Of a stretch of 32,000 nt of DNA, positions 23,721-31,741 are shown one piece after another. Position numbers and translations under genes: made by a program. The stretch is from positions 30,001 through 62,000 of the forward strand of contig PRDJ01000042.1 of assembly GCA_003345555.1 (NCBI GenBank), in the 5' to 3' direction. The DNA comes from Candidatus Thorarchaeota archaeon. Its GTDB lineage: Archaea > Asgardarchaeota > Thorarchaeia > Thorarchaeales > Thorarchaeaceae. Position 1 is the first letter of the stretch, and each line of letters opens with the position of its first letter. The notes under the pieces were generated by a model that saw only the letters and a list, made by a program, of their open reading frames with translations, was not told where the DNA came from and searched no databases.

Positions 23721-24458
23721 ATGGACGAACCACTGCAATCCGCGCTCTACGCATCAATCGCTACACTGGACCAGCTCAAGAAAATGTACGACATGGGCGT
23801 TGTTGATGTCAGGTCGTATGAAAGGGAGTCTGAAGCGCTAATAACAGAGGTTCGGAATTGCATCGAACAGATGCGGAGAACCGGTCTTGACGTTGGGAAC
23901 TTCGTGGGTCAGGCCCGGATATCGGAGTCGTTTCCCGAAGCGTCGAACATGCTGGGGCTGTACGGACGAGACACGCGGCAGCCAGGTATAGGGATGACAA
24001 CTGATCAGTACTTCGACTACATCGGACTTGCCGTCTTAGATGTGGCTACCGCGAATTCCTCGAAAGGGCTGATGGGACTTGCGGAACTCATTGTCGAGGT
24101 CGTGCGCCTGCTGCCAGAGCTCAAGTCTGTCAGCTACAATGACGTGATCGAGGCAGTGAACCGCGTGTCTCAACATGGATTGATACCGGGCATTCGGACG
24201 CTTAGGGGCGGAGTCAAAGTTGTGGAACTGCGTCCGTTAGAGCTGCGTCGTGACCAAGCAGATGTAATCAATGCTGCCGCCACCAAGGGGTACGTTTCCA
24301 TTGAAGAGCTCATGATGCAGCTCAAGTGGTCAGAGGACCATGCACGTCAAGTTCTCTCCAGTCTGGTCGATGCTGGCATGGCAGTGGCAGACATACGGTT
24401 CTCGACGGGTGGCCGCTATTACTTCCCGGGTTTAAGACCTAGAGATAGTACAGTGTAG
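23721..24458 (+). CDS. ESCRT-II Vps22/Vps36-like (EAP30) tandem winged-helix protein with an N-terminal Vps28-like module
   Basis: Residues ~95-240 track Vps22/SNF8 (ELRRDQADVINAAATKGYVS.EEL...LKWSED.ARQVL..L...G.A..D......YYFPGL). Residues ~5-80 resemble the Vps28 N-terminal helical region. Confidence 0.8.
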   Translation: MDEPLQSALYASIATLDQLKKMYDMGVVDVRSYERESEALITEVRNCIEQMRRTGLDVGNFVGQARISESFPEASNMLGLYGRDTRQPGIGMTTDQYFDYIGLAVLDVATANSSKGLMGLAELIVEVVRLLPELKSVSYNDVIEAVNRVSQHGLIPGIRTLRGGVKVVELRPLELRRDQADVINAAATKGYVSIEELMMQLKWSEDHARQVLSSLVDAGMAVADIRFSTGGRYYFPGLRPRDSTV

Positions 24459-24506: not shown

Positions 24507-25220
24507 TCAGACCACTGCTAGTATTGCGCCTTTCTTCGAGTCAACCCATTTTGCCAATCCTTTGTCAACCATTATCTGCATGATTCGATGCAAGTCTCTT
24601 TCAGGGAGCTTCGAGAAGTCTTGGCCGGATTCCTGCACGACAATTGACTGCACATCTAGGCGCAGTTTTCCTGTCTTTATTGCCCAACGGTATATGATGT
24701 CACCCCATTCCTCGAGGGGTCGCCAGTAGACTCGAAGCTGTCTTTTCTTCTCGTCGAGCCATTCTCCAACGTCCTTCTTGACCAATGATTCACCTATGAA
24801 TCTGAAGGCGTCGACCTTTCCAAGGATGTCACTGAACGGTTTCTCCTTCACGAAGGTTGACACTGAAAGAACATGTATGCTTTTGAACTCGGTCCAAATC
24901 ATAAGATAGTCTGACCACTCTTCCGCCCACATTTCTATGTCTTTTTCTGCAGGTGGAATATGATACATCCATTCAGCTTGGTTTACGTTTCCCCACTGCG
25001 GGGCCGGGAGCTCTAGGACCTGTGAGGGCGCAGACTCAGGGACGATTTCAGTCTGAATCGACTCGAGCTCCTGAGTCTGCGAATCCTCTTCAGCTTCAGT
25101 TTCGGTAACATCGACAAGAGTGTCGGTCTTAGGTGTCTCTTTGCCAACAGAAGCATCAGACGTTGGTTTGGGGGTTGGCTTCTGTCGCTCCTTTTCTTTC
25201 CGGCGTTCCTTCACTTCCAA
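24507..25220 (-). CDS. vps25: ESCRT-II Vps25-like protein with acidic N-terminal extension
   Basis: WMYHIPP (cf. eukaryotic WQYRFPP), WSDYL, and RVYWRPLEEWGDIIYRWA (cf. WRRPEEWGKLIYQW). TTG start. Confidence 0.85.
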   Translation of the reverse strand: MEVKERRKEKERQKPTPKPTSDASVGKETPKTDTLVDVTETEAEEDSQTQELESIQTEIVPESAPSQVLELPAPQWGNVNQAEWMYHIPPAEKDIEMWAEEWSDYLMIWTEFKSIHVLSVSTFVKEKPFSDILGKVDAFRFIGESLVKKDVGEWLDEKKRQLRVYWRPLEEWGDIIYRWAIKTGKLRLDVQSIVVQESGQDFSKLPERDLHRIMQIMVDKGLAKWVDSKKGAILAVV

Positions 25221-25223
25221 TCC

Positions 25224-26453
25224 CTAAGACGCCTCCCCCCATTCGATATACTTCCTTACGTCTTCTGGAGTTGTACCGGGTCCAATGTTCTCAATAGCCC
25301 GCAGAAAGTCGTCCCGTGAGACGGGCCGTAGTTCGAGTCGTGCGCGGTCGCTATCGAGCTTTCCCACGCGCTGTAGGTCTCTTATTGGTTCCATCGCGGC
25401 TTCCCGACATACCACACTAATATCCCGGCCACTATAACCGTCGGTCAAATCAGCAAGTTCTCCGAAGTCGACTTCCGGGGACAGTTCAATGTCTTCCATG
25501 TGAATCTCGAATATCTTTCTCCGTGAGGTTTTCCTTGGCAAGGGGATGTGAATCTTCTTCTCAAATCTTGATCGAAGAGCGAAGTCCAGTTCCCATGGAA
25601 GATTGGTAGCACCGATTACAGTAACCCTATCATCGGGATGAGTCGCCAATCCCTGCAGCTCAGTCAATAGCTGAGTCTTGAGTCGTCTCTCCCCGCCAAC
25701 ATCATGTCCCGTTCTTGAGATTCCAACAGAATCAAGCTCATCCATGAAGATAACGGAGGGCTGACTCCTCCTCGCCATTTCAAAGAGGGTCATGACGAGC
25801 TTCTCTGACTCGCCGAGCCACTTGCTGACGATATTTGCGGCTGAGACATTGAAGAACGTTGCATGCACTTCAGAGGCCACAGCCTTTGCTATGAGAGTCT
25901 TACCACATCCTGATGGTCCATAGAACAGAATGCCCTTCCAGGGCTGCCTCGATTTTCCCTTGAAGAGTTCAGGATGTTTCATTGGAGACACAATGGCTTC
26001 TTGAATTACCTGCTTTGCATCGTCCAATCCTGCAACCTCGGACATTTTCAAATCCGGTCGTTCAGTAAGAATCGTGTCAGCAATCATATCCTGAAGGTGT
26101 CTCATGTCTTCGTTGTCGTCGCCTGTTTCCGAAGTCCTTCCGGATGGCAGTGATGGCTCTCCCCTGTCTATAGAAAATGTGGCGGGAATACTTGGAATCG
26201 TCGGTCGTTCCGCTTGCCTTGTCTTAAGGCCTGAGATGTATCTTACCCGATCTACACACTCTTGGGCCCTGCTCAGGTAGTGCTTCTGCAAAGATGGAAG
26301 GGATGAGGAATTCGAGAGCTTGATGAGTATCATGCTTGCCTTTAGATAGTCACTACAAGCCTCTTTCTGGAGTCCTCTCCTGTCCAAATCTATTGCCTTT
26401 TCGAGCAAAGCCTTGACTCCAAGGTCGAGGCGGTCAGCGTCTGTTCCTGACAT
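25224..26453 (-). CDS. vps4: Vps4-like AAA+ ATPase with N-terminal MIT domain
   Basis: MIT helices (KAIDLDRRG...Y), Walker A GPSGCGKT, pore loop KWLGESEKLV, Walker B FMDELD, GATNLPWELD, RFEKKIHIPLP. Adjacent to ESCRT-II and ESCRT-III genes. Confidence 0.92.
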   Translation of the reverse strand: MSGTDADRLDLGVKALLEKAIDLDRRGLQKEACSDYLKASMILIKLSNSSSLPSLQKHYLSRAQECVDRVRYISGLKTRQAERPTIPSIPATFSIDRGEPSLPSGRTSETGDDNEDMRHLQDMIADTILTERPDLKMSEVAGLDDAKQVIQEAIVSPMKHPELFKGKSRQPWKGILFYGPSGCGKTLIAKAVASEVHATFFNVSAANIVSKWLGESEKLVMTLFEMARRSQPSVIFMDELDSVGISRTGHDVGGERRLKTQLLTELQGLATHPDDRVTVIGATNLPWELDFALRSRFEKKIHIPLPRKTSRRKIFEIHMEDIELSPEVDFGELADLTDGYSGRDISVVCREAAMEPIRDLQRVGKLDSDRARLELRPVSRDDFLRAIENIGPGTTPEDVRKYIEWGEAS

Positions 26454-26609
26454 TCAAGGTCGCCAGTCAAGTGCGCTTGAATGGTTAAGAGTTTCTGTGT
26501 TTCGTAGCGCGATACTCCTTCAGTTGTCCTGCCCGCCAGAAAGGCACGTTTGTTACGAAGGCTTAAAGGCGGAGGTCTCGCACAACCCACAGAAGTTCAT
26601 CATCAGGAC

Positions 26610-27236
26610 ATGGTGAGGTCGTTGGGTACATTCAGGAAGGCTATGACTTGGGGTCGCAAGAAGCCGGACGTTGCAGAGGTAACCAGTCAGCTTAGAATCC
26701 TAGGCAAAGAGCTCGAGCGAGAGAGAAACAGGCTCGAGAAGGAAGAGACTGAGACCAAGGCTCGAGCGGTGCGGGCTCGGAAAGAGGGCCATGTCGACGC
26801 CTACAAGACCTACGCAGTAGAGATGATCCGGTTCAGGAAGTATGCTTTGTCTGTCGACAAATCGCGGCTTCACCTACTGAGGGTACTCGGCCATATCGTT
26901 CATGCTCAGTCGGCCGCTAAGACGAGCTTGGCAGTAGAAAAGGTCGCCAAGATTCTCGGGATACTAGGTGATGCAAAAGACCCAACAAAGGTTGTTCGGA
27001 GTCTTGATGAGATTACTCGAAGACTGGACGCAATGGAAATCGAAAGCGGGATTTCTGACGAAGCCTTTGACTCTATGAAAGACAGCAAGGTGACGTCAGA
27101 AGAGCTGGCCGCAGCACTGCAGGAGATTGATGCCGAGGCTGGGGCTGCAAAGGTCGTCTCGCGGGCCGGTCCAGCTACAGAGGCTGAGAAACTCGAAGAA
27201 GAGATCAAGTTGCTAGAGAAGGAACTTGGTGTCTAG
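26610..27236 (+). CDS. ESCRT-III subunit, Vps2/24/46 (CHMP1-3) class
   Basis: N-terminal FRKAMTWGRKK helix; ELERERNRLEKEE...ARKEGHVDA resembles CHMP2A ELDRERQKLE...AKQGQMDA; C-terminal MIM1-like LEEEIKLLEKEL. Start uncertain (ATG 26610 or TTG 26622). Confidence 0.88.
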   Translation: MVRSLGTFRKAMTWGRKKPDVAEVTSQLRILGKELERERNRLEKEETETKARAVRARKEGHVDAYKTYAVEMIRFRKYALSVDKSRLHLLRVLGHIVHAQSAAKTSLAVEKVAKILGILGDAKDPTKVVRSLDEITRRLDAMEIESGISDEAFDSMKDSKVTSEELAAALQEIDAEAGAAKVVSRAGPATEAEKLEEEIKLLEKELGV

Positions 27237-27237
27237 A

Positions 27238-28878
27238 CTAGCGCCCAAAGACCTGACGATTCCCAGAAGCCGTTTCTAGTCTTTTTCTCGTTTCAAATGA
27301 ATCTCGCATGAGTCCCTTGTATCTCCTGATGAAATCCTCTGGGACCAGCTGACCGTTCCTCAATAGACGAACCGTTTCTCTAGCGGCATCCTCAATCGTT
27401 ATCGCGTCTCTTCTGAGTCCCATTGTTTCTGCAGAGTCGGGAACCGGAGAAGGCATGCCACCTGCACCGAACAAGCCGCCGAGGTCTCGGCCGAGTCTGT
27501 CGTGATACTGCAAAGGAGCTGTGCGGGCTCCGTTGTCAGATGCGTTTCCGAATGGATAGTACGAAGCCGATCGCCGGTCGTATGGTCCGTATCCAGCAGA
27601 TGCTTGTGTCCCGATGTCAGCTTTTCCACCTGAACACATGAGCGAGTAGGCGAGTTCTTCTACCTTGAGCCTGACATCGCTAATGCTCACGTCGGTCTGT
27701 CCGAGCTTTCTCGTTCGCTGAAGGTCTGACTGCATATACTTGTCGAATTTTCTGGCGATTTCTACATAATCTGGCAGAACACTCTCTGTCTGATCGCTGC
27801 AAGTTATCTTGATATCGCCCTGCTTCATTCTCAGGACTGTTCTCTTTCTCAGCCTGCCATCCTCTTCTAAACCCTTCATGTAAGCAAGGGGTATATCGAA
27901 GACTATGTCGGTTTTCTTTCGGAGTCTTCCGGTTTCAGCAATAAAGACGAGCCTCTTGTTGGTTATGTACAAGGTGCCAGTGGCCTTGTCATTCTTCACG
28001 AAGTCACTGCCTGCGATTCTGATGTCGGGTAACGCACAGACTGGCAGTTCGTTTACAGACAGTTCTGCAGTCTCATAGAACCCCGCGAATTGCTTCCTAT
28101 AGTAGTCCAGTCCGTCCAGCTGCTGTTCGATATCTACTAATGTCAGCCTCGCCTCTTCGATTGCGTCATCAATATTCTTCCGGTATTGACCCACAAGATG
28201 GGTGACACGATTCGTTACTCCGCCTACAAAGGGGAACTGATCGGCAGACCATGCGCTGGAATCGAGGAGCCCCTTGGTCTCAGCAGCCATTTGCCTCGAG
28301 ACTATCTCCGCTTGGCTTGTCACTCTGTTCTTGATGGCAGGGATCTCCATCTCGATGTTCTCAATCTTCTCTTCCAGCCAGCGATAGTGAAGGAAATTCG
28401 CCATCCTGAGAGAAACAAGAAGCCTCTTGGCTGACATCAGCTGGTTGGTGAAATCGCGCAGGCGTGTGTATCCATAGTGGAGTGTGATTATGGCATGACG
28501 CAGGTCTTGAGCCAGCACCTTTCTTTTGTCCTCTACAGACACCGTGTGTGTGGAATGGCACCTGGGACAGATTTCTTCGATTCGCTTCCCAGCACTCAGC
28601 TCTCGAGAGCCGCATTCCGGGCATTTCTCGAACTTCTGCCCTGGGGCGGGAGTGCCAAGGCCGTGGTGGCAATTACTGCATACAATGTGCTCGCTTGACT
28701 TGGTCTCAAGGCATTCCAAGCACAATACCTCTCCGCAATCCTCACAAAGATGCGTGGCTCTATTGCTCTTGCAGACTTTACAGAGCTGGGTAGAGGATTC
28801 GTTACTCAACTGGGTGCCTCCGAACATCTGGGCTTGCATATTGTACTGAGGAGTCATGGATAATTGGCTATGTATCAC
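27238..28878 (-). CDS. Multidomain protein: Zn fingers (six CxxC pairs), helical region, PH/GRAM(GLUE)-like domain, steadiness box (Vps23/TSG101-like ESCRT-I core)
   Basis: 12 Cys in residues 33-107; GTLYITNKRLVF at 301-312; C-terminal IEDAARETVRLLRNGQLVPEDFIRRYKGLMRDSFETR resembles TSG101 IEDTIFYLGEALRRGVIDLDVFLKHVRLLSRKQFQLR. Confidence 0.7.
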   Translation of the reverse strand: MIHSQLSMTPQYNMQAQMFGGTQLSNESSTQLCKVCKSNRATHLCEDCGEVLCLECLETKSSEHIVCSNCHHGLGTPAPGQKFEKCPECGSRELSAGKRIEEICPRCHSTHTVSVEDKRKVLAQDLRHAIITLHYGYTRLRDFTNQLMSAKRLLVSLRMANFLHYRWLEEKIENIEMEIPAIKNRVTSQAEIVSRQMAAETKGLLDSSAWSADQFPFVGGVTNRVTHLVGQYRKNIDDAIEEARLTLVDIEQQLDGLDYYRKQFAGFYETAELSVNELPVCALPDIRIAGSDFVKNDKATGTLYITNKRLVFIAETGRLRKKTDIVFDIPLAYMKGLEEDGRLRKRTVLRMKQGDIKITCSDQTESVLPDYVEIARKFDKYMQSDLQRTRKLGQTDVSISDVRLKVEELAYSLMCSGGKADIGTQASAGYGPYDRRSASYYPFGNASDNGARTAPLQYHDRLGRDLGGLFGAGGMPSPVPDSAETMGLRRDAITIEDAARETVRLLRNGQLVPEDFIRRYKGLMRDSFETRKRLETASGNRQVFGR

Positions 28879-29004
28879 ACTGGTATTAGTCGATGCATGC
28901 TGGTGTTTGGCTAGCTAGTGCACTTGGTACTCTCCAAATGGATTGTCCCGTCCGGATTGGTTATATTACGGGAAGCAAGTTTCGGAACACAAGGCGAATC
29001 ACGC

Positions 29005-30390
29005 ATGAAGACTCTCGCGCAGGCTGCAATTGAAGCCGCTCTCAAGACCGGAGCTGCTTTTGCAGACATCAGGATAGAAAACACAGTTACAACAATCATT
29101 GAAATCGATGATGGAGTCACAAAGAGGTCGATGGCCGCCCAGTTGAAGGGGGCGGGAATAAGAGCATTCTTCGACGGAGCTTGGGCATTCGGTCAAACCA
29201 CGGACCTAACTCCTTCTGCAATGCGAAGTACTGCGGCATCTGTTGCCAAGATGGCTATTGCCACGCACGGCAGAGTCGCAGAGAAGTTCAGCATTGACGG
29301 ACCTGCCTTCGAAGACAATGTCCGTCTCAAGGTGAAACGCCCACTCCAAGATGTGGGTGCGGCGGAGAAGGTTGCATTGGTCAAGATGATAGATGAGCAG
29401 GCTCGAGGTTATGACAAGAGGATAGCAAATGCCCGGACTACGTATGGAGACCTGTGGACCGAGCTGTACGTAGCCAATTCATTGGGTACGAGTGTTTACA
29501 TCGAGAATTCGCTGCCGCGCATTGTCAGTATGGTAACAGCCAAGGACGGAGCCAACAGACAGCGGGCGTTCAAGTCAGCGGGGGCAAGGGGTGGTTTCGA
29601 TGAGATGCAGACCGAACACGCTCAAACAATCGGCGAAGAGTCTTCCAAGTTGGCTGTTGAACTCCTGTCTTCTGTCGCTGCAAAGGGTGGAGTCTATGAT
29701 GTCATCATGGATCCAGTTTTCAATGGAGTAATGGTGCATGAAGCGTTTGGTCATGCTTGCGAGGCAGACAACTGGCCAGCTCATACCACGGTACTAGAAG
29801 ACAAGGTGGAGAAGGTTGTGGGGCCTGAACACCTGAATTTGAGTGATGATCCTACCCTTGAGGGGATGCGTGGTTCGTTTCCTTACGACTGGGAAGGGAC
29901 TAAGACCCGAAAGAGACATCTTGTCAGACGCGGCGTACTTACGGATCTACTGCATGGCCTTGAGTCTTCCAGTCGGCTAAACATGGAACCAAACGGTGCG
30001 GCAAGGGCCCAATCGTTCATGAGTGAGCCGATTCCTCGGATGAGCAACACGTTCATGGAGCCCGGCGACTGGCGTGTTGATGAGCTGATTTCAGACACGC
30101 GCCAAGGAATCCTGCTTTGCGACTTCAACTATGGCTACACGGAGCCATCAAAGGGTCAGTTCATGTTTCAGGCGAGCTATGGATATATGATTGAAGGTGG
30201 AGAAGTTGGCCAGATTGTGCGCGATGTATCAGTTGCAGGACAGATTCTTGATGTACTTCCCAAGATAGATGCCGTGGCGAACGACTTCAGATTGGAAGCA
30301 GGGAGTTGCGGCAAGAACGCTCAGCTGGTTCCGGATATGAGTGGCGGACCTCACGCTCGGGTACGGTCAGTTCCGGTAGGAGGAATGTAA
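29005..30390 (+). CDS. tldD: TldD family metalloprotease
   Basis: AFADIRIE, GIRAF..GAWAF, metal-binding HEAFGHACEAD, PIPRMSNT, and C-terminal CGK. ATG 29005 is preferred. Confidence 0.92.
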   Translation: MKTLAQAAIEAALKTGAAFADIRIENTVTTIIEIDDGVTKRSMAAQLKGAGIRAFFDGAWAFGQTTDLTPSAMRSTAASVAKMAIATHGRVAEKFSIDGPAFEDNVRLKVKRPLQDVGAAEKVALVKMIDEQARGYDKRIANARTTYGDLWTELYVANSLGTSVYIENSLPRIVSMVTAKDGANRQRAFKSAGARGGFDEMQTEHAQTIGEESSKLAVELLSSVAAKGGVYDVIMDPVFNGVMVHEAFGHACEADNWPAHTTVLEDKVEKVVGPEHLNLSDDPTLEGMRGSFPYDWEGTKTRKRHLVRRGVLTDLLHGLESSSRLNMEPNGAARAQSFMSEPIPRMSNTFMEPGDWRVDELISDTRQGILLCDFNYGYTEPSKGQFMFQASYGYMIEGGEVGQIVRDVSVAGQILDVLPKIDAVANDFRLEAGSCGKNAQLVPDMSGGPHARVRSVPVGGM

Positions 30391-30391
30391 G

Positions 30392-31741
30392 ATGACGAAG
30401 CAGCTCACGGACCTAGCAGAGAAGACAGTCAAAGTCGCAGAACGATTGGGCGCTGAGCAGGCGGAGGTCTACATCGGTTCCACACGGTCTTTCTCGATTG
30501 ATGTTGAGAACAATGCTATCAAGAGCGCCGCCGAAAGAAGAGACGCTGGGTGCGGCATTCGATGCGTGTTTGGAAAGAAGATAGGCTTCGCATACGTAAC
30601 CACACTAAACGGTGATGACATCGAAAATGCCTTGCGCAGGTCCATTTCTTTGGCAAAGGCATCAGTCGCTGATCCCGACTTCGTGAGTCTGCCCGGTCCT
30701 GAGTCACGCTACCCCGTTGTGAAGGACTTGTTTGACAAGGGCGTAGAAGGCTTGACTGCTGATGAAGCTGCTGACCTTATCGCAGGATGTCTAGATGCTG
30801 CCAAGGAGCCTCTGCATGGAAGGAAGTATGCCATTCAGGCAGACTTGAGCACTTCTTCGGGTAGCAGAGCAATCGCCAACTCTCTCGGAGTGTCACAGTC
30901 TGCAGAATCGACTTCTATAACAATGTACAGCGAGGTGACAATCAAAGAACAGGCGGACCAAACGTCAAGTTACGAGTATCTGGTGTCGCGTGCACTGAGG
31001 GAGATTAATCCTGAGTGGATCGGCAGGACCGCTTCGGAGAATGCATTGCGCAATCTCGGAGCGAAGACTATCGAAGGCGGCGACATGTCAGTAATCATGA
31101 CACCTCTGGCCGTAAGCATGGTTGTCGGATCAGGTTTTGCAGATGCCGTCAACGCAGAAGAGGTTCAACAGGGACGTTCCTACATCTCAGATGCAATTGG
31201 CTCGGAAGTTGCATCGGATGAATTACATATCGTGGATGATGGTTTGCTCAAGGGCGGAGTAGGGTCACGAGCATTTGATGCAGAAGGTGCCCTTTCTCAA
31301 CGGACTCAGGTGCTGAAACGCGGTGTGTTGCGGAGTCTGCTCCATAGCTCTTACACCGCTAACAAGGATCGGGTTCCCAATACCGGGAATGCTTCTCGGC
31401 CTTCCTACGCTGGCATACCAATGATTGCCACTACCAACTTCGTGATTGAGCCTGGGCGCGGCATGCTTGAAGATCTCGTCTCAGAAGTGAAGAAGGGCGT
31501 CCTCTGCATGAATACATTCGATCGACCGAACATGACCACGGGCGATCTGAGCGCAATGGTGAGCGAAGGTTTCTACATAGAGGACGGCGAACTCAGACAA
31601 GGAGTCAAGAGTACTCTCATAGGCATCAACATGCGTGACCTTCTCAAGAGGGTCATTCGTGTCGGTGCAGACACGAGAGCAACAGGCCGCATGGTGACCC
31701 CTTCCATCGTGATTGATTCTGCCAAGATAACCTCCGGATGA
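30392..31741 (+). CDS. tldE: TldE/PmbA family protein
   Basis: AEQAEVY, G.RC..GKKIGFAY, FDAEG, TGNASR. Lacks the HExxH motif and sits 1 bp after tldD. Confidence 0.9.
   Translation: MTKQLTDLAEKTVKVAERLGAEQAEVYIGSTRSFSIDVENNAIKSAAERRDAGCGIRCVFGKKIGFAYVTTLNGDDIENALRRSISLAKASVADPDFVSLPGPESRYPVVKDLFDKGVEGLTADEAADLIAGCLDAAKEPLHGRKYAIQADLSTSSGSRAIANSLGVSQSAESTSITMYSEVTIKEQADQTSSYEYLVSRALREINPEWIGRTASENALRNLGAKTIEGGDMSVIMTPLAVSMVVGSGFADAVNAEEVQQGRSYISDAIGSEVASDELHIVDDGLLKGGVGSRAFDAEGALSQRTQVLKRGVLRSLLHSSYTANKDRVPNTGNASRPSYAGIPMIATTNFVIEPGRGMLEDLVSEVKKGVLCMNTFDRPNMTTGDLSAMVSEGFYIEDGELRQGVKSTLIGINMRDLLKRVIRVGADTRATGRMVTPSIVIDSAKITSG

Follow-up and report, generated by a model that had tools for sequence, protein, structure and literature searches.

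The locus examined here raises the question of how an archaeal protein that joins a TSG101-like hairpin to zinc and PH modules, and not to a ubiquitin-binding UEV domain, could serve the ESCRT machinery encoded beside it, and whether ubiquitin would have any part in this. The window analysed is a 32,000-nucleotide stretch of a Candidatus Thorarchaeota contig, in which the gene of interest is the longest ORF at 27238..28878 on the minus strand (546 amino acids from a GTG; 165 homologues found). Translation probably does not begin at the GTG at 28878, because a 533-residue database protein (P0002) that is 99% identical to the product begins at M14, and because conservation in the family alignment starts near residue 23; judging from the sequence, ATG 28839 (M14) or 28857 (M8) is the likely start codon. 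From N- to C-terminus the protein comprises six CxxC pairs, a stalk of three helices, a PH domain, a linker that is disordered and, last, a helical hairpin; the translation, AF2 models and profiles located all these features at the positions given in a first-pass annotation. With the single sequence as query, Pfam gave only weak GRAM and zinc-finger matches, with no Vps23_core, UEV or UQ_con match and no EAP30 domain.

The protein represents, in Thorarchaeota, a family confined to Asgard archaea, Znr_CC_PH_SB (asCOG cog.011556). This family (also written Znr_PH_CC_SB) was named by Makarova et al. 2024 (mBio, PMC10936438), who described three zinc modules, a helical region, a PH domain and a C-terminal steadiness box, reported an Asgard-only distribution and proposed an ESCRT-I-like, membrane-associated role. 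The orthologue from Thor AB25, ThorAB25_08990, had served as the 'SB' protein in the study of Hatano et al. 2022 (PMC9192718). Homology places our protein in the published family by an indirect route. P0134, a family member (E 3.4e-29 to our protein), has the locus context L35Ae / X / MetE that is listed for the Lokiarchaeum GC14_75 member in the supplement of PMC10936438, and the printed sequence of ThorAB25_08990 (PMC9192718) matched, in a by-eye comparison, P0063 and P0036, which are 57-58% identical to our protein. No substantive difference from Znr_CC_PH_SB could be observed in architecture, ESCRT neighbourhood or proposed role. It should be noted that the family is already known, its architecture, its role and the absence of ubiquitin from Thorarchaeota all having been published (PMC10936438, PMC9192718).

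The feature that connects this protein with ESCRT-I is a Vps23-type steadiness-box hairpin (residues 483-538; 27265..27432, minus strand), supported by profile comparison with the PDB, Pfam and co-folding and modelled at pLDDT ~94. A profile of 31 family hairpins matched the yeast Vps23 ESCRT-I core along the full hairpin (E 2.5e-8 to 3.2e-7), with individual matches to 2p22_A (E 2.5e-8), 2f66_A (6.6e-8), TSG101 (0.0036) and VPS37B (0.012). Pfam Vps23_core was found in 23 of these 31 hairpins (best 3.1e-7) and Pfam CdvA in two. The Thorarchaeota hairpin has diverged so far that our protein's copy had no Vps23_core match by itself, and in a genome-wide scan with PF09454 it reached 11.6 bits (E 0.6), no better than matches in bacterial control genomes; the assignment therefore rests on the family profile, and at that level the TSG101-like steadiness box recognized by the first-pass annotation holds.

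A predicted partner for this hairpin is encoded in the same window by SB-Vps22 (23721..24458, plus strand), which combines a Vps28-type N-terminal hairpin (residues ~3-60) with EAP30/Vps22 winged helices. Pfam matched EAP30 (5.3e-13) and VPS28 (positions 2-61; 0.0026), and the profile of the SB-Vps22 hairpin matched the yeast Vps28 N-terminus at E ~0.1. No GLUE or PH domain was detected in SB-Vps22 by Pfam, as the annotation had stated for GLUE. Its proposal of a Vps28-Vps22 fusion was right as to the Vps28-type N-terminal hairpin and wrong in so far as it implied a complete Vps28: neither a Vps28 C-terminal domain nor a separate Vps28 was found in the genome, where PF03997 matched N-terminal hairpin positions only. 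Co-folding of residues 478-546 with residues 1-90 of Vps22, the outcome on which the annotation had staked its assignment, gave an ipSAE of 0.76 (0.72-0.77 in three runs) against 0.00 for the best control, with at least 98% of contacts in common among the runs and a partner pLDDT of at least 79. The predicted contact surface on our protein comprises residues 503-532, and the contact helices of Vps22 lie at residues 6-40. Among solved complexes the ipSAE mark applied was attained by 58 of 80, among mismatched pairs by 2 of 110, counts that are rough (own alignments were used). The ESCRT-I headpiece is itself a solved complex, and the success of the co-fold may reflect likeness to it. In eukaryotes this headpiece contains three hairpins, whereas only two could be assigned here, the steadiness box and the Vps22 N-terminal hairpin, which hhalign aligned in register (E 1.1e-4, 56% probability). 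The N-terminal extension of Vps25 was considered as a third hairpin and rejected: it is acidic and of low complexity, looks disordered from its sequence and matched neither hairpin profile. A Y2H contact of a Loki SB protein with Vps22 has been published (PMC9192718).

The N-terminal zinc module (residues 33-107; 28558..28782, minus strand) contains six CxxC pairs (Cys 33/36, 45/48, 53/56, 67/70, 86/89 and 104/107), sufficient for three Zn sites, and all 12 cysteines were invariant among 32 diverse family members. When Pfam was applied to each member, zf-B_box was identified in 30 of 32 (best 1.1e-6), DZR in 24 and the ANCHR-like B-box in 23; the zf-B_box score of our protein's own copy was 0.025. 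On this basis the module resembles a B-box with a zinc ribbon after it, and the NZF fingers suggested by the annotation could not be upheld. The signature of the NZF motif includes Trp and Asn, both of which were missing on inspection from the third and fourth Cys pairs (CxxC-x10-CxxC spacing), and zf-RanBP was absent among the 25 families listed for the module. Three long helices (residues 115-264; 28087..28536, minus strand), placed by AF2 at 115-159, 166-201 and 212-264, form a predicted stalk or bundle linking the zinc module to the PH domain, and the AF2 model of the whole head (residues 28-420) had a pLDDT of 91.4 and a pTM of 0.80. A correspondence to TRIM/RBCC proteins, in which a B-box is followed by a dimerising coiled coil, is putative.

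The PH domain (residues 279-381; 27736..28044, minus strand) is modelled as a seven-strand beta sandwich with a C-terminal helix, includes GTLYITNKRLVF and was classed as GRAM/GLUE-type from structure comparison, Foldseek and Pfam searches of each member. The best structural matches comprised the GRAM-PH domain of MTMR2 (Z 12.6, rmsd 2.7, 107 aligned) and Lam6 (Z 11.8) as well as the GLUE domains of EAP45 (Z 10.3) and Vps36 (Z 9.5). Among the 32 members Pfam identified bPH_3 in 19 and gave weak matches to GRAM in nine and to Vps36_ESCRT-II (PF11605, the Vps36 GLUE domain) also in nine, the last with matches below the cut-off (best 0.0012) and lower scores than GRAM. The top match of the PH profile among PDB sequences was the Vps36 GLUE domain (2cay_A), which at E 0.086 was not significant. 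By structure, the modelled domain appears closer to GRAM than to GLUE. Because of this, the module 'swap' with Vps36 suggested by the annotation is an analogy rather than demonstrated descent. Lipid binding is putative, as suggested by the fold and by conserved basic residues in loops b1-b2, b3-b4 and b5-b6 (K298, R320/K322 and R342/R344/K345/R346); the ligands of many GRAM and PH domains are proteins rather than lipids. Two conserved helices seen in the alignment and the AF2 model (residues 386-418; 27625..27723, minus strand) follow the PH domain and lead into the disordered G/S/P/Y-rich linker (residues 419-482; 27433..27624, minus strand; pLDDT <50 at ~418-479), which varies in length and sequence within the family. 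Family proteins range from 480 to 1171 residues, and those of Thor (~500-530) are shorter than those of Loki (~650-730) because their linker is shorter.

The gene sits in a standard Thorarchaeota cluster together with SB-Vps22, Vps25 (24507..25220, minus strand; Pfam ESCRT-II 5.3e-11), Vps4 (25224..26453, minus strand; MIT, AAA and Vps4_C by Pfam) and an ESCRT-III gene of the Snf7 family (26550..27236, plus strand; Pfam Snf7 5.3e-13). The ESCRT-III gene, whose orthologue ThorAB25_09000 was called ESCRT3A in PMC9192718, is convergent with the Znr_CC_PH_SB gene, their stop codons lying 1 nt apart. According to locus tags, the family gene and Vps22 are four genes apart in Thorarchaeota assemblies, and the five-gene order was identical at locus L031. 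A convergent ESCRT-III gene was located within 2 kb of the family gene at 19 of the 21 informative loci, drawn from at least eight GTDB families, which is a modest addition to published work. The linkage to ESCRT genes on which the first-pass annotation had made its reading depend is thus found in related genomes. Vps4 and Vps25 adjoin the family gene in two families only. Outside Thorarchaeota, most lineages have ESCRT-III as the nearest conserved neighbour in place of Vps22 or Vps25, so that docking on ESCRT-II is perhaps not the sole or chief link.

With regard to ubiquitin, no match to PF00240 (ubiquitin), PF05743 (UEV) or PF00179 (E2) was detected in this genome (93.5% complete), and neither ubiquitin (0/27) nor UEV (0/27) was found in the sampled genomes of its own family, the searches having positive controls in other parts of the phylum. 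This agrees with the statement of Hatano et al. 2022 that Thorarchaeota are without ubiquitin (PMC9192718), and the possibly ubiquitin-independent assembly envisaged by the annotation fits such gene content. Across the sampled Asgard genomes, ubiquitin was present in 87 of 121 and UEV in 39 of 121, and nearly all other sampled families have ubiquitin. The Znr_CC_PH_SB family was identified in 244 of 301 sampled Asgard genomes (77 of 90 high-quality genomes; 73 of 76 in its own GTDB family). Most other Asgard lineages have both the family and ubiquitin, and the family is therefore not a ubiquitin-free device in itself.

Considering these data, we regard it as quite probable that the protein is an ESCRT-I-like, Vps23-type adaptor without UEV that is placed on the membrane by its PH domain and docks on ESCRT-II through Vps22. 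The compact head, composed of the three-zinc module, the three-helix stalk and the GRAM/GLUE-type PH domain, is tethered by the ~60-residue linker to the hairpin, whose pairing with the Vps28-type hairpin at the Vps22 N-terminus, as predicted in silico, would let the adaptor dock straight on ESCRT-II with no free-standing Vps28 in between. Conserved basic loops of the PH domain may set the complex on the membrane, while cargo or a further partner might be bound by the zinc module and stalk, or these might self-associate. Vps22/Vps25 would then nucleate ESCRT-III, and Vps4 would remodel it. In the Thorarchaeota lineage such recruitment would not use ubiquitin, because ubiquitin, E2 and UEV are not detectable there.

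The likeness to Vps23/TSG101 includes a steadiness-box hairpin homologous at profile level, a helical region upstream of it and the predicted Vps28-type pairing. However, Vps23/TSG101 has a UEV domain and a proline-rich region, both of which are replaced here by the zinc module and PH domain. Compared with ESCRT-I, moreover, the chain that carries the partner hairpin continues into Vps22 and not into a Vps28 C-terminal domain, and no equivalents of Vps37 or Mvb12 were assigned. With the GLUE domain of Vps36/EAP45 and the GRAM domains of MTMR2 and Lam6 the protein shares a PH-like beta sandwich (Z 9.5-12.6), and like yeast Vps36 it carries zinc fingers in the same chain. On the other hand, its PH domain is neither inserted in nor followed by Vps36 winged helices, and its zinc fingers are N-terminal and B-box/ribbon-like, whereas those of Vps36 are NZF inserts.

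A different reading, which we consider possible but unlikely, is that the PH-bound protein itself recruits or regulates ESCRT-III, for example in cell division, in the manner of CdvA, with ESCRT-II docking secondary or absent. CdvA of TACK archaea binds the membrane and acts as an adaptor upstream of ESCRT-III/Vps4 with no need for ubiquitin; it has a hairpin related to the steadiness box, a relationship described in published work. This reading would fit the finding that, across Asgard families, no neighbour is as conserved as the convergent ESCRT-III gene, with Vps4/Vps25 adjacency so restricted, and it would fit the two hairpins matching Pfam CdvA. However, genes in convergent orientation do not share a transcript, Vps23 is a far better match than CdvA for the hairpin (23 versus 2 members), and the co-fold with the Vps22 hairpin is a confident one. 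CdvA differs from our protein in possessing a PRC-barrel and, as a ligand of the CdvB winged helix, an E3B peptide, and in lacking any PH domain, zinc module or link to Vps22/Vps25. Such a role is compatible with the ESCRT-I-like model. Because the convergent pair is conserved across Asgard families, it could even be suggested that the primary, ancestral job of the family was CdvA-like, that of a membrane adaptor independent of ubiquitin and directly coupled to ESCRT-III, that the link to SB-Vps22 came later and that Thorarchaeota, being without ubiquitin and UEV, keep or have regained a pre-ubiquitin mode of recruiting ESCRT, a scenario to which we give rather little weight.

Two further readings start from the head of the protein. 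If the zinc module were RING/B-box-like, it might be an E3-like or ubiquitin-binding element that replaces UEV; its profile matched RING and B-box chains such as RNF4 (3.3e-6) and TRIM2 (3.2e-5), scores that are inflated by cysteine bias, and Hatano et al. call it a RING (PMC9192718). The coexistence of the family with ubiquitin in most Asgard families would agree with this idea. However, the protein is kept with all its cysteines in a genome lacking detectable ubiquitin, UEV and E2, and the first two were not found in the 27 sampled relatives of its family either; a part in a ubiquitin system is thus very improbable in general and, for this Thorarchaeota copy, nearly excluded. The long helices leading into a PH domain also recall DH-PH exchange factors, which could act on the many Asgard small GTPases. 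Structural searches did list such tandems, including Vav1 (Foldseek, E 3.9e-5), FGD proteins and Dbs (Z 11.1, rmsd 4.8, 176 residues aligned), but most tandem alignments were at rmsd 8 to 30 A, and a Z below ~13 may mean a mere common arrangement for long-helix bundles. Moreover, a stalk of three helices spanning ~150 residues does not resemble a DH domain, and no match to Pfam RhoGEF (PF00621) was found. We judged the resemblance to be one of shared topology, and there is scarcely any chance that the protein is an exchange factor.

Taken as an ESCRT-I-like adaptor, the family bears on the origin of ESCRT-I and on how Asgard archaea direct the ESCRT machinery to membranes. Our analysis adds to published work another orthologue, an in silico pairing of the steadiness box with Vps22, a near-universal Asgard distribution and a conserved convergent ESCRT-III neighbour. 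In Thorarchaeota, the targeting of ESCRT to membranes apparently works without ubiquitin.

The Znr_CC_PH_SB gene occupies an ORF of 546 aa with a GTG start (27238–28878, minus strand). Its true start is probably internal to this ORF, because the 99% identical database protein P0002 (533 aa) begins at M14 (ATG 28839) and conservation among 31 Thorarchaeota homologues sets in only near residue 23. The neighbouring genes form the standard Thorarchaeota ESCRT cluster: a convergent Snf7/ESCRT-III gene (26550–27236), whose stop codon lies 1 nt from that of the Znr_CC_PH_SB gene, Vps4 (25224–26453), Vps25 (24507–25220, minus strand) and a Vps22 protein of 245 aa (23721–24458), in which residues 7–64 weakly matched the VPS28 N-terminal hairpin and residues 92–224 matched EAP30/Vps22. 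According to locus tags, the gene is four genes away from Vps22 in Thorarchaeota assemblies. The cluster is flanked by an aspartyl-tRNA synthetase gene and a divergent TldD/PmbA metallopeptidase gene pair (28918–31741, plus strand); the spacer to this pair (39–90 nt, depending on the true start) appears ordinary. The first ~75 residues of Vps25 are an acidic, E/T/K/P-rich low-complexity extension. An SB-like subdomain has been reported at this N-terminal position in some Asgard Vps25 proteins.

This protein family is already known. Makarova et al. (2024, PMC10936438) described it as 'Znr_CC_PH_SB' (asCOG cog.011556); they regard it as probably an ancestral ESCRT-I component of Asgard archaea and expect its PH domain to associate with membranes. 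It was also listed as a steadiness-box (SB) family by Lu et al. (preprint 10.1101/2023.07.25.550441). The supplement of Makarova et al. places a Lokiarchaeum member in an L35Ae/MetE context, the same as that of the database homologue P0134, a family member (E 3.4e-29) encoded between L35Ae and MetE. Hatano et al. (2022, PMC9192718) reported ThorAB25_08990 as an 'SB' protein, with ESCRT3A, Vps25 and Vps22 beside it, and the key to one of their supplementary figures includes RING, CC and PH in the set of domains depicted for ESCRT-I proteins of Asgard archaea. In an exhaustive search, the Zn-stalk-PH region was common to 95 cluster representatives (480–1171 aa); its profile had hits in 244 of the 301 Asgard genomes that were sampled (usually one copy), 77 of 90 high-quality Asgard genomes and 73 of 76 genomes in the window's own family.

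The domain order read by the first-pass annotation (zinc module, helices, PH, linker and SB) was confirmed by AF2, per-member Pfam searches and a hairpin profile. With a Thorarchaeota alignment, AF2 delimited a zinc-rich beta module (residues 33–114), a stalk of three long helices (115–264), a PH-like sandwich (279–381), two helices (386–418), a disordered stretch (418–479) and a helical hairpin (483–538, pLDDT about 94). Because residues 28–420 reached pLDDT 91.4 and pTM 0.80 with a phylum-wide alignment, the zinc module, stalk and PH domain are modelled as one compact head. All 12 cysteines were invariant in 32 diverse members. The zinc module matched zf-B_box in 30/32, DZR in 24/32 and ANCHR-like B-box in 23/32 members, and looks like a B-box plus ribbon, not like NZF fingers. 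The PH domain matched bPH_3 in 19/32, GRAM in 9/32 and Vps36_ESCRT-II in 9/32 members. Its closest structural likeness was MTMR2 GRAM-PH (Z 12.6, rmsd 2.7, 107 aligned), followed by Lam6 (Z 11.8), EAP45 GLUE (Z 10.3) and Vps36 GLUE (Z 9.5), and Foldseek agreed. Thus, the PH fold of the suggested PH/GLUE-like domain holds, but it is nearer to GRAM than to GLUE, and the module 'swap' with Vps36 is better taken as an analogy. The linker is variable and disordered except for a motif of approximately [FY]-[RK]-D-x-L-[ED]-R-x-[IL] (aa 459–468; 27475–27504, minus strand), kept among Thorarchaeota copies and modelled as a low-confidence helix, which may be a partner docking motif.

On its own, the C-terminal hairpin of the window's copy fell below the Pfam threshold for Vps23_core, which was matched by 23 of 31 members (best 3.1e-7). 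A profile built from 31 hairpins across the family matched yeast Vps23 along the full hairpin in three structures of the ESCRT-I core (E 2.5e-8 to 3.2e-7), and also matched TSG101 (E 0.0036) and VPS37B (E 0.012). Many distant representatives carry a Thor-like hairpin at the extreme C-terminus. Judged from these profiles, the SB assignment is sound at the family level. Among 20,614 ORFs of the window's genome, the sole other significant match to the SB profile (E 3.7e-5) was the C-terminal hairpin of a free-standing protein of about 107–112 aa (contig C57:3026–3442, plus strand; locus L011:3107–3445), which could be the missing third, Vps37-like headpiece hairpin. This protein weakly matches Pfam GvpG, and its gene lies away from ESCRT genes, with a membrane transporter gene on one side and on the other a ZnuA/ABC zinc-uptake operon. 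Its 'G-x-I...EY' type of hairpin also occurs at the C-terminus of a protein of 186 aa whose N-terminal half is disordered (contig C67:49794–50357, minus strand; locus L004:1477–2037), which gave weak matches to the VPS28 N-terminus (E 0.08), the SB profile (E 0.044) and GvpG (1.6e-4).

PF00240, PF05743 and PF00179 had no match in the window's genome (93.5% complete). Because standard control genomes are uninformative for such families, the ubiquitin and UEV searches were rerun across the Asgard phylum. Ubiquitin was found in 87 of 121 sampled genomes, covering nearly every family except the window's (0/27), and UEV in 39 of 121 (0/27 in the window's family). Given these absent matches, the ESCRT cluster of this lineage appears to work without ubiquitin; Thorarchaeota were also noted to seem devoid of it (Hatano et al., 2022). 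In most other Asgard lineages, the Znr_CC_PH_SB family occurs alongside ubiquitin. One large Asgard family (25 genomes) has a long form of the protein (650–730 aa), with ubiquitin in 24/25 and UEV (PF05743, E <= 0.001) in 0/25 genomes, the latter in agreement with the remark that UEV-Vps23 is missing from Loki- and Thorarchaeia (Lu et al., preprint).

As to the partner of the SB protein, a direct link to ESCRT-III in the manner of CdvA would be the principal alternative, as the conserved convergent gene pair suggests. Of 24 fetched loci, two represented the same place and two were cut by contig ends; in 19 of the 21 informative loci (at least eight GTDB families), a convergent ESCRT-III gene lay <2 kb from the 3' end, a count to be read as a pattern and not a statistic because related genomes are not independent samples. 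Adjacency to Vps4 and Vps25 was limited to two families. The tail-to-tail arrangement was seen in the window (26550–27240) and in loci L007, L016, L020–L027 and L030. Where two ESCRT-III genes stand in a row, the adjacent one resembles the second copy of the window's genome (contig C39:21361–22053) and the next one the window's copy, the ESCRT-IIIA of Hatano et al. (2022); in Thorarchaeota, the adjacent-type gene has moved elsewhere.

Binding of the SB hairpin to the N-terminal hairpin of Vps22 is supported by modelling. The two hairpins aligned in register (hhalign E 1.1e-4, 56% probability), and that of Vps22 weakly matched the N-terminus of yeast Vps28 (E about 0.1). Co-folding of residues 478–546 with Vps22 1–90 gave an ipSAE of 0.76 (runs 0.72–0.77; best control 0.00), with at least 98% of contacts in common between runs and partner pLDDT of at least 79. 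Among solved complexes, 58 of 80 attained this mark, as against 2 of 110 mismatched pairs, a calibration that is approximate here as our own alignments were used. Because ESCRT-I headpieces have already been solved, such a pass reflects likeness; it supports binding but falls short of proof. A Loki SB protein contacts Vps22 by Y2H (Hatano et al., 2022), and Asgard Vps22 (cog.002769) was described as fused to a steadiness box (Makarova et al., 2024). The proposed Vps28-Vps22 fusion stands for the hairpin alone, as the Vps28 C-terminal domain was not found in the searched genome. Subject to four corrections, the overall interpretation of an ESCRT-I-like SB adaptor is supported; if the pairing with Vps22 is real, this adaptor would dock directly on ESCRT-II.
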